A DNA stretch of 64,000 nt from Eubacteriales bacterium. GTDB lineage: Bacteria > Bacillota > Clostridia > Oscillospirales > CAG-382. Positions 36,859 to 56,123 of the stretch are shown here, in pieces. The position numbers and the translations under genes were made by a program. Position 1 is the stretch's first letter. Every line of letters begins with the position of its first letter. The DNA lies in the NCBI GenBank assembly GCA_045595165.1, contig JAZNZY010000019.1, forward strand, positions 11,884 through 75,883, read 5' to 3'. The notes under the pieces are model-generated. The model saw only the letters and a program-made list of their open reading frames with translations. It made no database searches and was not told the DNA's origin.

Positions 36859-37884
36859 ATGGCAGAGAAAAAGAAGCCTAAAGAGCAAAAGTTAACGGGA
36901 GCGGAGAAAAAGCAGCGCGGTCTGTTCAAAAAGAAACGCGCCGGTATCGTCCTGACCAAGGACGAGGTAAAGCAGATCAAAGCAGGCAGGAAGAAGCTCC
37001 GCCGCGATATGCGCAAGGCGGGAATAAAGAGCAAGAAGGAGTTCGAGCTCACCGCTTCCTCAATGGGTCTGTATTTTGATAAGCGAAAGCCACTTGTACT
37101 TTTCTGGTGGTGGTTACGCGGCAAAGGGATATGGTTCTTGCTTGCTGCAGGAGCACTTGCACTGGCTGCGCTTTACGGAATATCCTATATCACCGAGCTG
37201 AGAGGACATTTTACCATAAGCATGTCGGGCGATATGTTCCGTGAGGGATTCACTATATCGGAAACGGTAGGGTTTGAGAATCCCACTTCCCATTTGTTTG
37301 CTACCCCTGCGGAAGGAGTACCGTGTATATCTATTTATGATATACCCGAAAATGTCGATGATATCGACGGCGCTCATAATGCGAATTATTTCGCATATAC
37401 GTTTTACCTTCGTAACGAGGGTGAAACCGCCCAGGATATAGATTGGGTTCTCCGCCTTAATTCGGAAAGCTTGTCTGTATCAGATGCGGCTTGGGCGATG
37501 ATCTTTCTTGACGGCAAGATGCAATTTTACGCCAAGGCGGACGAGGACGGAAATGTCCAGTGCCTTCCCGCGGCGGACGATAATACCAGAGGATATACAA
37601 AAGCCCCTCTTTATGACAAAGCTCTTTATCCCGACGAACAGTACGAGATTATAAAGAGTATGGGTGAAATGACCTTCTGGCGCGTCAAGCCAAAACCGTT
37701 TATCTCCGAGCTTTCTATAGATTCCGGCAGAATAACGGATATCCAGCCTTTTGAGGTCCACAAATTCACCGTGGTCATCTGGCTTGAGGGGGACGACCCC
37801 CAGTGCACCAATGATCTTATAGGCGGTCATTTGGGATTGGAATTTTATATGGAAATGGTGGAAGAGAATGACACCGCCGAATAA
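36859..37884 (+). CDS. Signal-anchored TasA-like-family protein with long K/R-rich cytoplasmic N-tail (341 aa)
   Basis: About 85 basic residues, then a TM span (IWFLLAAGALALAALYGISYI), then an extracytoplasmic domain ending 'FTVVIWLEGDDPQCTNDLIGGHLGLEFYM'. This motif is shared with the 40534 and 46516 proteins. Confidence 0.6.
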   Translation: MAEKKKPKEQKLTGAEKKQRGLFKKKRAGIVLTKDEVKQIKAGRKKLRRDMRKAGIKSKKEFELTASSMGLYFDKRKPLVLFWWWLRGKGIWFLLAAGALALAALYGISYITELRGHFTISMSGDMFREGFTISETVGFENPTSHLFATPAEGVPCISIYDIPENVDDIDGAHNANYFAYTFYLRNEGETAQDIDWVLRLNSESLSVSDAAWAMIFLDGKMQFYAKADEDGNVQCLPAADDNTRGYTKAPLYDKALYPDEQYEIIKSMGEMTFWRVKPKPFISELSIDSGRITDIQPFEVHKFTVVIWLEGDDPQCTNDLIGGHLGLEFYMEMVEENDTAE

Positions 37885-38030
37885 CCCCGGTTTTTTCGGT
37901 CAGTACCGCGACCTGGCCGTTTAAATATCATATATATTCGCAAAGGCGTGAATATCGATAAAGGGTATTTGCGCTCCGACCAAAAAAACAAAAAAACAAA
38001 AAATAAAAACAAAAGAAAGAAGGCAAAAAA

Positions 38031-54100: not shown

Positions 54101-56123
54101 TACCATGCAGTACGTAGTGCTGGACGGCGAATATACCGAGCTCGACGAAGGCAACCGCTTTACTGTTGACGTTAAGCTGGGTATAAAGGTAGATGTTTCT
54201 ACCAACACCAAAACAAACTTTGTTATGGACGTGGATGGAAATTATCCCGAAACGTTGGATATGACGGTAGTTATTCTGGATAATAACAATCAACGTATCC
54301 TCAACGTTACGGAGGCGGAGTTGTATTATTCTCTCCGCGGATCTTCTGCTACTACTTTGTATGCAAACCTTACCTGGGATGCACAGAATCAATGCTTTAC
54401 AGGCTCTCTTCCTACCACGACAGGTATATGGAGCTTTAGCCACGTTAACATTAAACAGGGTGATTCGGTAAGCACACTTTCCACCGCAAACAGCGATGCA
54501 CCTGTGTTTACCATCATCGCTCCCGATCCTCCCGAGGATGCAAAGAATAATATCGCAACAAGATACCAGTATCTTGCAAACGCAACCGGCAGCTATAAGC
54601 AGTCGAATCAAAGCGGTAGTATCGTAACTACTATTGACGGCGCAACTGCTTCCGTCGACCTTAAGTATGCTACCGCAGCGCAGGTGTATGCAAAGCTTGA
54701 ACCGGCATCATCTACCAACGAAAAGAAGACTCCCGTATACGTTATCGGTGTAGCTTCCCCCGTTTCTCAGGAAGATCAGACAACACGCTTTACCTTCGCT
54801 ATTCCCGAGGGCGAGTGGACACTTACCGAGGTTCGCGCGTGGAACGTTTACGATGCAGACCAGAATCCCTATCTTTGGAAGGACGAATTCGGCGTATCTC
54901 CTACAGAACTTACAGAAGAGCAATATTCAACCGGTATGGCTATTGACGTTGCAGATTCTACCGTTGCCGCTCTTTATAATGTGAATCTCACTTTTGCGTA
55001 TAAGACCGCAACCGGTCAGATCGCGAATGAGGTGGTAACCTTCGGTAAGGGCACATCCGGCACGGAGATAGTTTCTGATTTTATGGCTTCCCATAATATT
55101 GAAGCAGGCGATATTAAGATCACCTTTACAGATAAGAATGGCCTTATCCAGAGCGGAAAGTTTAGCATAAGCGACGTTAAGCTCTTTATTGACTATGCAT
55201 CTGATATAGCGAATACAGTTTCTACTTACGGCGGATATACCACTGCAAACTCATTGGGTACACACGCTGTTGCCCAGCAGGAGTTTGAAGTAAGCGGTGG
55301 CAACGTTGCTTCATTAAAGAATGCTGTAACCTTGCAGTACGCTGCTCAATATAAAATGGGTACGGTATCGTATTCTGTTGTTGCTGCAGATACTACAAAA
55401 TCAGAAGAACAGCAAGTACCTGGTGCGGATTTAGATACTGCTTATTTGTACGAGGTTTGGTCAAAGACGCCTACAGTGGTTATTAGCAATATAAGCAATA
55501 AAGACACTAGTATAAGCGTTGACAATACCAGCGAAAAAAGCCTAACTGATACTTATACTCAATCAAGCGCATCGTGGGGTCAAAAAAAGACAACGTGGAC
55601 GCTTAATGACAAGCATACGACTGCAACGCCGACCATAAGTAGCGATAACTTATCGGCTACTGTTTATTTCCAATGTAATCATGCCGCGGGAAGTTCTTGG
55701 AGCAGTACAGGATATGGTGTAACTGGACAAAGGTATCATGCATATATGAGTGATGCGGGATACGGCGTTCCTACGGTTACTTTAACACTTGGCGATATTA
55801 GCGGTTATACTTCTGCTAAGTTGGTGTTCAGCGATAATAGTCGGATCTATAGTAGCGTGTCATATACTACAGATGGTGGGAATGGTATATGGGAAACCAC
55901 AGGAAGTGGCGCAGATTTCATTTGGAAGAGCACAGATAAAACTATCACTCGTTATATAGGTTATGCCAAATCGCAAAAAGAACGTTACTTCACTGATGCA
56001 ATTAACGCTACCGGCGAAAAAATACCTGCAGGAGAAATTACATCCAATAAACTTGAGGTAGTATATAATGGTGTAACTTACACTTTCACTGTTCCTACTA
56101 TTACCATTAACAATCCCTACTAA
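51192..56123 (+). CDS. 1643-aa TasA-like-family protein with ~850-aa beta-rich C-terminal extension (putative tip/adhesin subunit)
   Basis: N-terminus 'AVSASMLVTVSFAWLSISINPAVQGVNTTVAANGNLEIALA'. It shares 'TWGNLVN...YGL..MTLRP' and 'PVYDEDGRV' with the 769-aa protein ('YWGNLVD...YGL..IVLYP', 'PVYGADGRV'). An internal 'LVTALVYLDGDNLTNDYVLASSDIDGQLNIQFGNN' closes the TasA-like module near aa 770, followed by many T/V/Y-rich Ig-like segments. Confidence 0.7.
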   Translation: MKETQKRIMEYNFKLPKLKEKVIAVALLLAVSASMLVTVSFAWLSISINPAVQGVNTTVAANGNLEIALATGSAATITAPGESKVGDSNLPILERNLTWGNLVNLADASYGLSQMTLRPAKLNEFELATNPLYGPVYDEDGRVVKLNTNFGYSMWDTKTMVFEHTDKLGVRSITSMIYGTTGTATMYRNRLDEVNSKNGILQSKYTALANNSNHMNALTDVMVGYMLHAFRTGGSSVAGLVSEANFTRTQLQNFKVLYEDFAEVLAEQAQVYADFLNLQAEIQAYIQEKNGQEPISITITAEEILSLSYGSNAAANAVKNKGFTAISGGFINELDSYLTDYNIVVSDIDNIQGIIDAMTRTSVSWPDAKYTNSAGVSVSLEDIVNRFAVLGTCKVYIPNDNVTKDVSAFTGASTVMLLTDEDYIDITITNGLLKNFENRNGARLKAEGIPLQMSAAGQTVDVEATVQTNANKNLFGAEASNLAATITSEIGAPTLVPSDTYGLAIDFWVRTNASGGYLTLQGNVLTVKNEVEVTGIDKNGDTVNIYTLSRESTQEVEGENGETSTETYTQTYDLYWLEEEVTAEDGSTTKETVWYNAVTHSRFELQDGENPRQKIETVETVIGYEGDNRVWEGDEHAILSVNSTTQGSGSCYVYYADTPEDQARSLELLKYMKVAFIDVEGNLLAKAYMDTERHYAANGKVTVPMVLENDSINIGTNDEGEAVFAITPLEKNTPMLVTALVYLDGDNLTNDYVLASSDIDGQLNIQFGNNQLLKPIDNETLYNAEMSISATVSPTEFNYDDGTEMKSSVAVTIEGYEPNTVEAFFVRAINAQTGAKEEKFALNDADGDGVWTSNYEFMYPGTYLLRSVTIDGIERELTLAEGESFPTVTVKGFDIRNVTYNINPTVFSVNNSYTGSVSLQFVADDPAKMPQKVMGRFIREDGTTVNVNFVYDATTHVWTGNATFVSSGVYTMQYVVLDGEYTELDEGNRFTVDVKLGIKVDVSTNTKTNFVMDVDGNYPETLDMTVVILDNNNQRILNVTEAELYYSLRGSSATTLYANLTWDAQNQCFTGSLPTTTGIWSFSHVNIKQGDSVSTLSTANSDAPVFTIIAPDPPEDAKNNIATRYQYLANATGSYKQSNQSGSIVTTIDGATASVDLKYATAAQVYAKLEPASSTNEKKTPVYVIGVASPVSQEDQTTRFTFAIPEGEWTLTEVRAWNVYDADQNPYLWKDEFGVSPTELTEEQYSTGMAIDVADSTVAALYNVNLTFAYKTATGQIANEVVTFGKGTSGTEIVSDFMASHNIEAGDIKITFTDKNGLIQSGKFSISDVKLFIDYASDIANTVSTYGGYTTANSLGTHAVAQQEFEVSGGNVASLKNAVTLQYAAQYKMGTVSYSVVAADTTKSEEQQVPGADLDTAYLYEVWSKTPTVVISNISNKDTSISVDNTSEKSLTDTYTQSSASWGQKKTTWTLNDKHTTATPTISSDNLSATVYFQCNHAAGSSWSSTGYGVTGQRYHAYMSDAGYGVPTVTLTLGDISGYTSAKLVFSDNSRIYSSVSYTTDGGNGIWETTGSGADFIWKSTDKTITRYIGYAKSQKERYFTDAINATGEKIPAGEITSNKLEVVYNGVTYTFTVPTITINNPY

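Follow-up and report, generated by a model that had tools for sequence, protein, structure and literature searches.

The question raised by this locus is what a bacterium would build with an operon that brings together several exported proteins, three signal peptidases and a membrane-anchored ATPase. The operon, a compact series of 13 open reading frames (ORFs), occupies positions 35374-56123 of the plus strand of a 64-kb window, i.e. the whole stretch analyzed here (64,000 nucleotides, positions 11,884 to 75,883 of contig JAZNZY010000019.1, assembly GCA_045595165.1, Eubacteriales bacterium, Clostridia, CAG-382); genes are designated in this work by the position of their first nucleotide. Surface fibres decide the attachment of gut anaerobes to fibre, mucus, host cells and each other; sortase and type IV pili apart, almost nothing has to our knowledge been reported on those of Oscillospiraceae, Lachnospiraceae and Ruminococcus. 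An earlier note on the sequence between positions 36859 and 56123 had proposed that seven of the encoded proteins form a paralog family with a TasA-style N-terminus and a conserved C-terminal strand motif. From the analysis of this interval we conclude that it belongs to a system, widespread and so far undescribed, in which SipW-type processing is combined with a membrane ATPase derived from McrBC. The interval contains the core of an operon that is conserved but unannotated, and the probable function of this operon, to which we give an even chance, is the building of a protein structure at the cell surface. Among the mechanisms considered, the best supported, with odds of roughly one in two, is that the system works like TasA, with SipW-cleaved subunits that would polymerise through their termini and a paralog that would act as anchor.

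Five exported paralogs and two companions

All the motif strings quoted in the earlier note were found in the translations. The N-terminal motifs are TYAWFTLS (position 38130), TYTWFALS (40645), SYAWTTIS (46591), TVAWHTNV (48672) and SFAWLSIS (51309), whereas those of the C-terminus are IWLEGDDPQC (37777, in 36859), IWLEGQDIDC (41422, in 40534) and VWIEGQDVDC (47743, in 46516). The final strands include the sequences NLQFA (40242; NLQFASS in 38031), NIQFS (41485; NIQFSAAF in 40534) and NIQFG (53481, in 51192), and the C-terminus of 38031 also carries VYLDG..ITN. When these patterns were searched as regular expressions in the six-frame translation of the whole window they were confined to these ORFs, and the chance matches in shuffled translations were approximately 0, 0.015 and 0.25 for the motif patterns.

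The relationship among these proteins was evaluated with hhalign, using family alignments from 83 related loci, and the comparison was repeated without the signal peptides because signal peptides can inflate such scores; in this trimmed control every alignment begins three residues before the putative cleavage site. The families of 40534 and 46516 align over their full length (probability 100%, E 1e-44, and 3.7e-40 without the signal peptide), 38031 aligns with residues 11-785 of 51192 (probability 100%, E 5e-57), and residues 91-337 of 36859 align with residues 24-327 of 40534 (probability 98%, E 2e-13; 97.6% without the transmembrane region). The N-terminal regions of 38031 and 40534 gave a probability of 98.9%, and of 97.1% after trimming; for the C-terminal regions the untrimmed values were 52-93%, and the region of the C-terminal motif gave, after trimming, 94.8% (46516 with 38031) and 88.7%. 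With the mature domain compared to the 40534 family, 36859, 46516 and 38031 are members, and 51192 is a member by way of 38031 (100%). In BLASTP among the proteins of the window, 38031 also matches 51192 (E 1e-20 across 547 residues, and again at the C-terminus); further matches connect the N-terminal ends of 38031, 40534, 46516 and 51192 with each other, and the C-terminal end of 40534 with that of 46516. Of the seven members proposed earlier, the trimmed and untrimmed comparisons retain 36859, 38031, 40534, 46516 and residues 1-785 of 51192, and leave out 48528 and 50498. When compared with the five families, only 30-43 residues of the 48528 signal peptide align (probability 26-82%) and 50498 does not reach 21%; without the signal peptides both give at most 3.5%. 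As judged by these profiles, the predicted class of signal peptide is all that 48528 and 50498 have in common with the five.

The earlier note had named the absence of the motifs from orthologous loci as a reason to abandon the family, and the motifs turned out to be conserved in orthologs as well as in distant lineages. Y39, W41, the string W298-L-E-G, D303, D305 and C306 are invariant in 38 sequences (orthologs of 40534, 54-70% identity), and the pattern W[LIF]EG.D..C is found again in proteins of Lachnospiraceae bacterium 10-1 and R. albus, of a Ruminococcus metagenome-assembled genome (MAG) and of a Bacilli MAG. For 40534 there are 808 matches at the level of 90%-identity clusters, all of them unnamed or hypothetical, and in the few cases in which a source is named it is a MAG of Oscillospiraceae, Ruminococcaceae or Clostridia; for 38031 there are more than 2320 database matches. 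A profile of the 40534 family (38 sequences) recovered 2,521 clusters at 50% identity (E<=1e-3). The five genes are, on the evidence of these alignments, paralogs in a large unnamed family of predicted extracytoplasmic, mostly beta proteins.

The scans of the cluster ORFs with Pfam, NCBIfam and PADLOC identified no family in the seven proteins, except Beta_helix in 48528. The product of 36859 (36859-37884, on the plus strand like all the genes of the operon) was recognised as a membrane-anchored paralog from hhalign, the transmembrane scan and the conservation profile. It has a basic Lys/Arg-rich cytoplasmic tail (residues ~1-88), one transmembrane helix (90-108) and an extracytoplasmic all-beta domain; its family shows G-x-F-T-[IV] and G-[FL]-x-[LI]-S-E after the helix, no A|WF cleavage motif can be read in the N-terminus, and the protein looks like a paralog that stays uncleaved in the membrane. 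The large secreted paralog 38031 (38031-40340), a candidate major subunit, has a SipW-type signal peptide, a conserved N-terminal segment and a helical insertion of ~250 residues (roughly 173-420), and in its AlphaFold model (predicted local distance difference test, pLDDT, 85.5) the beta regions are broken by this long insertion. The core fold of the family is represented by the compact secreted paralog 40534 (40534-41556), with a signal peptide that ends in TYT|WF and an all-beta domain; its model (pLDDT 83.5) includes a helix (15-44) followed by ~20 strands. The secreted paralog 46516 (46516-47844; signal peptide SYA|WT) was assigned by hhalign and carries insertions. In the giant paralog 51192 (51192-56123), residues 1-785 are homologous to 38031 and residues 786-1643 (858 residues) are an unannotated extension; the protein has no Pfam match and BLAST revealed no internal repeats in the extension. 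In a distant member of the family, P0583, the N-terminal module is fused to LRR_5/DUF285 adhesin repeats.

The two companions are also secreted. 48528 (48528-50465) has the signal peptide TVA|WH, an N-terminal domain and then a right-handed beta-helix (Pfam Beta_helix 8e-7), and is a candidate adhesin or tip component. The small protein 50498 (50498-51148) has the variant motif AYG|RY and orthologs that are 30-39% identical, and appears from profile comparison to be distantly related to the small proteins of Lachnospiraceae-type clusters described below. The possibility that 50498 is a lipoprotein (VAGC) was rejected, given that the lipobox is not conserved in the orthologs.

Predicted processing by SipW-type peptidases and the comparison with TasA

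Three ORFs of the interval, 41578 (41578-42066), 42101 (42101-42994) and 47813 (47813-48559), encode signal peptidases I of the SipW class. They score 63.5, 83.4 and 96.7 bits, respectively, with TIGR02228 (archaeal/endoplasmic-reticulum-type signal peptidase I; cutoff 51.85), all three also match the Bacillus SipW model (42101 matches SipW NF046067 with 9e-29), and the motifs SM, THR and GD(N/A)N (Ser/His/Asp) are legible in their translations. 42101 has a second transmembrane helix (194-212) and a charged coiled-coil cytoplasmic tail. The extra copy, 41578, has 162 residues and is devoid of the C-terminal transmembrane region and of the tail; because it is short, 48% identical to the neighbouring 42101, and has a separate ortholog among the listed loci only in L004, it looks like a recent tandem partial duplication. 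L004, from a water-buffalo caecum MAG, is the closest locus among those listed (ATPase 97% identical). The third peptidase, 47813, is only 24-27% identical to the other two and represents a second conserved paralog class, with orthologs assigned in most of the fetched loci.

The signal presumably recognised by these enzymes was approached with an alignment of 181 secreted proteins from the 83 loci, centred on the invariant W. The consensus consists of a hydrophobic helix followed by V-[TS]-[AS]-[TS]-[YF]-[AT]-W-F-[TS]-[LI]-S-x-x-P-x-V-x-G-[IML]...[VI]-G-x-x-G-G-L-E-[IL]-[AS]. The end of the signal peptide, [TS][YF][AT]|W, is unusually conserved and is present in four of the five paralogs and in 48528; given the small residues at -1 and -3, [YF]-[AT]|W is a textbook type I cleavage site. 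The hydrophobic region is also unusually conserved, with K15, L16, A19, M22, L23 and M29 invariant in the orthologs of 38031. Co-occurrence was counted in the 43 loci that extend 8 kb or more to either side of the ATPase gene; 42 of them have a SipW-type gene, with a median of two per locus.

For the comparison with TasA, 120 proteins of its family were retrieved, all with PF12389, and 111 were aligned; the TasA strings given in the earlier note are correct, the TasA sequence used being 99% identical to TasA in the database. The consensus obtained, ...VGGGTWA|AFNDVETINNSFAAGTLDL (GGTWA|AFND...GTLDL), has the layout T-aromatic-A|x-F-[TN]...G-x-L-[DE]-[LI] in common with the cluster, where the spacer is 5-6 residues longer. 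The TasA-style N-terminus is thus well supported as a processing class, i.e. a SipW-substrate pattern together with three linked SipW peptidases. The C-terminal pattern of the cluster, a strand, an acidic G.D loop and a last ..QF.. strand, can be likened to that of TasA/CalY-type proteins, ..DDGKDQN..QG....F.F.A.Q. Mature TasA starts at residue 28, which is the start of the donor strand (PMC9674648), and the cluster proteins have a conserved segment at the same place, right after the predicted cleavage site.

A different result was obtained for the mature domains, whose homology to TasA and camelysin had been part of the original proposal: every sequence and fold test that was run came out negative. 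PF12389 (Peptidase_M73) has no match at E<=1 in the seven flagged ORFs, nor at E<=10 in 19 diverse members of the family. With hhalign, the probability against the 111-sequence TasA alignment was 0.1-8% for each cluster family, and at most 6.5% after trimming of the signal peptides. Sequence searches of the PDB (phmmer with 38031 and 40534; profiles of the 40534 family and of the N-terminal domain of 48528) did not recover TasA, and a weak match to CFA/I fimbriae (E 0.01) in these searches was judged to be due to chance. Foldseek comparison of the 40534 and 38031 models with the PDB gave 0 matches at E<=1e-3 and no TasA in the top 50; the best matches were N-domains of GH123, HopQ, FlgK and a Sulfolobus thread, all with E>0.03. 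For 40534 the match of highest probability was the donor-strand thread 7pnb of S. acidocaldarius (E 0.078, probability 0.63, template-modelling scores 0.23/0.38), and for 38031 the archaeal pilin AbpA (7ueg) gave E 0.87 and probability 0.01.

These results bear on the idea that the proteins are highly diverged but true members of the TasA/CalY/BsaA superfamily, i.e. jellyrolls that polymerise by N-terminal donor-strand exchange and whose kinship is hidden by large insertions. The SipW-type signal peptide, the common layout around the cleavage site and the linked sipW genes would fit it, and iterative HMM (hidden Markov model) searches have expanded the superfamily to 2,172 very diverse proteins (PMC11580942). 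A possible bridge was offered by the small proteins (~250 residues, GGTFAWY...NLHPGE..Q.V.CVSN) encoded downstream of the second SipW gene in Lachnospiraceae-type clusters (L074:14240-15010, L053, L051, L054, L042, L060), which alone in the cluster get weak matches with the TasA HMM (E 0.002-0.07 among ~3,670 ORFs). With hhalign this family reached 74% with TasA, 91% with 50498 and 90% with 40534, but these values dropped to 6.5%, 41% and 2% upon trimming, and the bridge was discarded; the expansion to 190 proteins that was obtained with jackhmmer is therefore driven by the signal peptide. Given that the bridges vanish on trimming, no likeness to TasA can be detected beyond the signal peptide and the cleavage motif. 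With no PF12389, hhalign values this low, no TasA in the PDB-profile searches, no TasA, CalY or AbpA match in Foldseek with the two confident models (E<=1e-3), and a bridge family whose link to TasA depends on the signal peptide, true membership in the superfamily is improbable. The system resembles TasA in processing, not detectably in fold.

This partial resemblance is also evident at the level of the operons. As in tapA-sipW-tasA of B. subtilis and sipW-tasA-calY of B. cereus, a dedicated SipW-type peptidase is encoded next to its substrates; the T-aromatic-A|x-F cleavage site is likewise followed by G-x-L-[DE], and paralogous subunits are accompanied by an anchor or nucleator (TapA, and 36859 in the cluster). 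In contrast to TasA, which has 261 residues, the subunits of the cluster have 340-1643 residues and mature domains with no detectable similarity in sequence or fold; the anchor is itself a paralog, bitopic in the membrane, the SipW paralogs number two or three, and the McrB-like ATPase, its DUF2357 partner and the HD-GYP protein have no counterpart in TasA operons. The operons of TasA, CalY and Bsa have no ATPase/DUF2357 module (PMC9674648, PMC11580942). An accessory protein that bears an adhesive domain is likewise encoded in the matrix operon sipW-bsaA-bsaB-bsaC of C. perfringens (PMC11580942, PMC7395162), and the presence of several TasA/BsaA paralogs per SipW operon, which suggests heteropolymers, is a known theme (PMC11580942). 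However, BsaA and BsaB are recognisable remote homologs of TasA with an isopeptide lock whereas the family of the cluster is not recognisably TasA-like, the bsa operon has no ATPase, and BsaC is secreted with the help of type IV pilus genes that lie outside this operon and on which its secretion depends. Archaeal donor-strand filaments (the AbpA bundling pili of Pyrobaculum, 7UEG, and the Sulfolobus thread Saci_0406, 7PNB) are another point of comparison, being beta-sandwich subunits exported by a signal peptide and assembled without a chaperone-usher system; nonetheless the Foldseek matches to them are not significant and homology is not demonstrated.

The ATPase, its partner and the conservation of the operon

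The SipW peptidases and an ATPase pair, which the earlier note does not mention, constitute the most informative context within the interval. The first member of the pair, 43023 (43023-44603), encodes a membrane-anchored McrB-like AAA+ nucleoside triphosphatase (NTPase) with an N-terminal transmembrane anchor (helix 56-74), a coiled coil and an AAA_5 domain (Pfam, 23.4 bits; cutoff 22). Its closest solved relative in the PDB is E. coli McrB (6hz4, E 2.7e-4), and it matches the PADLOC candidate PDC-M26A (1e-41). The Walker A (GISGTGKTS) and Walker B (VILDEMN) motifs are legible in the sequence, and the segment GTINNDDSTFAVAD is one that we take to be McrB-like. This is the most conserved protein of the cluster, with 71-75% identity in loci L001 and L002, where 38031 has 41%. 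Residues 1-55 (43023-43190) are highly conserved in three orthologs (MDNFLRYF...) and net acidic, and the segment that follows the helix is strongly basic; from this charge bias, the only basis for the topology, the N-terminal segment was placed outside the cell, where it could contact exported subunits or SipW.

The presumed partner of the ATPase, 44636 (44636-46519), is a cytoplasmic protein of 627 residues with a long E/K/R-rich coiled coil and a DUF2357 (McrC-N-like) domain, which was detected with Pfam in 25/25 sampled members of the family (best 5.3e-13); this domain is, we presume, typical of McrC-like partners. The scans detected no nuclease domain, transmembrane helix or PADLOC match in 44636. 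Its stop codon overlaps the start of 46516, an overlap that shows putative translational coupling at this one gene boundary.

The AAA_5 core of the McrB type and the adjacent DUF2357 protein invite comparison with the GTP-dependent restriction system McrBC, and the pair could be an anti-phage module, the cluster being a defence or exclusion island and not an appendage. The PDC-M26A match, McrB as closest solved structure and DUF2357, taken as a mark of McrC-like partners, are in line with this view. However, no nuclease or DNA-binding family was found in the scans of the operon (absence of matches being weak evidence), and the partner has a coiled coil where the PD-(D/E)XK nuclease would be and no PADLOC match. 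Moreover, 43023 is anchored in the membrane, and the pair is embedded among exported proteins and signal peptidases in an order kept in the fetched loci and is linked to 46516 by the apparent translational coupling. A role in defence is, in consequence, hard to credit.

Upstream of the paralogs, the first gene of the cluster, 35374 (35374-36840), encodes a cytoplasmic protein with HD-GYP-like (HD_5, 9.4e-12) and EAL-like (1.6e-4) regions in Pfam, whose orthologs in L001 and L002 are 64-66% identical. The protein is probably a sensor or phosphodiesterase of cyclic diguanylate (c-di-GMP). Its motifs look degenerate, since HD is replaced by HQ and GYP by GFP and no clear EAL motif can be read in the EAL region, and it may be a sensor and not an enzyme; both HD and GYP are canonical in the short ortholog of Lachnospiraceae bacterium 10-1 (L074:7347-8012).

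The conservation of this arrangement was analyzed with the ATPase as probe in a collection with one genome per species; a relative is encoded in at least 584 of 600 pattern-matched stretches of these species-representative genomes. The 80 best loci belong to Oscillospiraceae, Acutalibacteraceae, Ruminococcus, Lachnospiraceae, Butyrivibrio, Erysipelotrichaceae, Bacilli and a Mycoplasmatota MAG. The recurring gene order is an HD-domain protein (not always present), a 36859-like protein, a 40534-like protein, SipW, the ATPase, the DUF2357 protein, SipW and further secreted proteins. In the 43 loci mentioned above, the 36859-like anchor and the DUF2357 protein were each found in 42, secreted members in 41 (median 3 per locus) and the HD-domain gene in 21; among the fetched loci, the core is conserved over Clostridia and some Bacilli. 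Cultured carriers include Ruminococcus albus KH2T6, Lachnospiraceae bacterium 10-1 and Hominimerdicola aceti, and the hypothesis is therefore directly testable. In Lachnospiraceae bacterium 10-1 (C819_03928-03935) all members looked up except the peptidase are annotated as hypothetical protein, and no description of the cluster was found in the literature searched; a mention of 'McrB' in a C. perfringens preprint stands near a strain/plasmid table and is not discussed in the text.

The near-universal association of an NTPase, dedicated peptidases and several helix-bearing paralogs follows a logic similar to that of the operons of type IV filaments (pili, archaella and the type II secretion system), where a peptidase, a cytoplasmic NTPase and a membrane platform act on helix-bearing paralogs; the likeness is one of analogy only. 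An ATP-driven filament of this kind would require that the helix be retained in at least some mature subunits, that the McrB-like ATPase and a 36859/DUF2357 platform extract and polymerise them, and that SipW serve as the prepilin peptidase. The unusual conservation of the hydrophobic helix would agree with this, and one member each gave a weak Pfam match to Arch_flagellin and Pilin_N (E 0.04-0.1). Nevertheless, the N-termini show no class III signal (short leader, G|F...E5), none of the 15 ORFs scanned in or beside the operon matched a prepilin peptidase or the PilB or PilC families, and the motif at the end of the helix is the type I site described above. The peptidases differ as well, a type I Ser-His SipW enzyme as opposed to an aspartic prepilin peptidase; so do the ATPases, McrB-like AAA+ as opposed to PilB/GspE, and the position of the cut, which is at the C-terminal end of the helix in the cluster and at its N-terminal end in type IV systems. 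In the model of 38031, the helix does not pack against the globular domain and is parted from it by a low-confidence linker (~32-53). A type-IV-like filament is, in view of these differences, very improbable.

From exported proteins to a probable surface structure

The evidence that bears on polymerisation comes mainly from 38031. In its alignment, 19/80 invariant columns fall within residues 35-63, and the nearly invariant residues 32-53 (35-54 for the invariant stretch) are modelled in the monomer with pLDDT <50. Conservation of a segment that the monomer leaves unplaced would be expected of an intermolecular strand such as that of TasA (PMC9674648). The interior of the protein behaves differently: compared with its ortholog in L004 (L004:5328-7307), 38031 is only 65% identical, whereas identities of 83-98%, for most 90-98%, were obtained for the other cluster genes that can be compared at full length (the L004 locus ends within the 51192 ortholog). 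The termini of 38031 are conserved, and the divergence and indels are concentrated at residues 321-400 and 601-680. Conserved termini and a variable interior are typical of exposed polymer subunits such as flagellins and pilins. This variation suggests diversifying selection on an exposed subunit or its replacement by cassettes; the difference between 38031 and the other genes is indicative of selection by immunity or by phages, and could be used as a marker of strains.

In a mechanism that would account for these observations, the precursors would be exported by Sec, and the SipW paralogs dedicated to them would cut behind the small residue at -1. The cut would bare the conserved N-terminal segment (WFTLSTAPEVTGI...) that AlphaFold leaves unplaced in the monomer, and this segment, along with the conserved C-terminal strands, would mediate the contacts between subunits. 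That these contacts occur by donor-strand exchange specifically is plausible, though rather less likely than not. The product would be a heteropolymer in which 36859, in a role like that of TapA, could provide the anchor in the membrane or the nucleator; the exposed and hypervariable 38031 would be its major subunit, and 40534 and 46516 minor or adaptor subunits, with 48528 and 51192 bearing adhesive extensions. On the cytoplasmic side, the McrBC-like pair would couple nucleotide hydrolysis to assembly, anchoring or turnover, possibly by way of two tails, the basic one of 36859 and the coiled-coil one of the SipW peptidase 42101, and under the control of c-di-GMP. The adhesin-repeat fusion of P0583, the beta-helix of 48528 and the dockerin, FIVAR and BspA-type leucine-rich-repeat neighbours were counted in favour of a surface structure.

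Several observations weigh against such a polymer. The first strand of 40534 (50-58) sits in the fold with pLDDT ~84, and a free donor strand is not evident; Foldseek gave no significant structural match to donor-strand polymers for the two models in the PDB. Polymerisation is argued from predictions of monomers and from genetic context, and the context is also the source of the function proposed for every member. The N-terminus could owe its high conservation to being recognised by the peptidase or the machinery, and not to contacts between subunits. Finally, known TasA-type fibres need no ATPase, and the near-universal presence of the ATPase pair suggests a mechanism that the model leaves unexplained.

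An alternative reading is that the operon encodes co-regulated monomeric surface or secreted proteins (adhesins, matrix or S-layer-like proteins) with a dedicated sorting signal, and not a polymer; the N-terminal motif would then serve for recognition by SipW and the ATPase-linked machinery, as sortase or exosortase signals do. The likeness common to all the secreted proteins, including 48528 and 50498, is indeed restricted to the region of the signal peptide and cleavage site, the unusually conserved hydrophobic region argues for recognition within the membrane, and there is no structural match to known polymer subunits. On the other hand, the five paralogs also have in common conserved C-terminal strands and W[LIF]EG.D..C, far from the signal, and an uncleaved anchored paralog conserved as widely as 36859 is hard to explain if the proteins are independent monomers. 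The presence of several paralogs per operon, together with a hypervariable large subunit with conserved termini, fits a polymer better. We therefore regard independent monomers as unlikely, though clearly more plausible than kinship with TasA or a type-IV-like filament, and retain TasA-like polymerisation of SipW-cleaved subunits as the preferred mechanism.

The most far-reaching interpretation, which we put forward tentatively and consider rather unlikely, is that the operon encodes a hitherto unrecognised surface-filament machinery of Gram-positive bacteria, in which SipW-processed subunits of a new fold family would be assembled, anchored or remodelled at the expense of a membrane-embedded AAA+ motor derived from McrBC, under c-di-GMP control. 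If this were true, it would be a third solution beside sortase pili and type IV pili, in hundreds of species of gut Clostridia and Bacilli, and one whose major subunit is hypervariable. If the proteins form fibres, the SipW/TasA paradigm would be extended to a new family of subunits and, according to the literature searched, this would be the first McrBC-type AAA+ pair recruited to the assembly of exported proteins. It should be considered that this is a system of 12-13 genes whose ATPase is encoded in the genomes of at least 584 species, and whose subunit family comprises ~2,500 clusters at 50% identity, annotated as hypothetical throughout.

The regulatory signals and the surroundings of the operon were also inspected. 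The scan of the locus for promoters and terminators gave results at or below the expectation from shuffled sequences. Directly upstream of the cluster, on the plus strand, 25894-32055 encodes a 2,053-residue protein with a C-terminal type I dockerin, which is followed by two FIVAR-repeat surface proteins (32070-33476 and 33605-35281); locus L001 keeps the same upstream set, a dockerin protein of 2,105 residues and FIVAR proteins. Directly downstream, 56193-57971 encodes a BspA-type leucine-rich-repeat surface protein (LRR_5, 6e-59) with a C-terminal transmembrane anchor, and its repeats are of the same kind as those of the P0583 fusion. An ORF antisense to the dockerin gene (25879-31902, 2,007 residues), almost as long as the dockerin ORF itself, is probably a compositional artefact.

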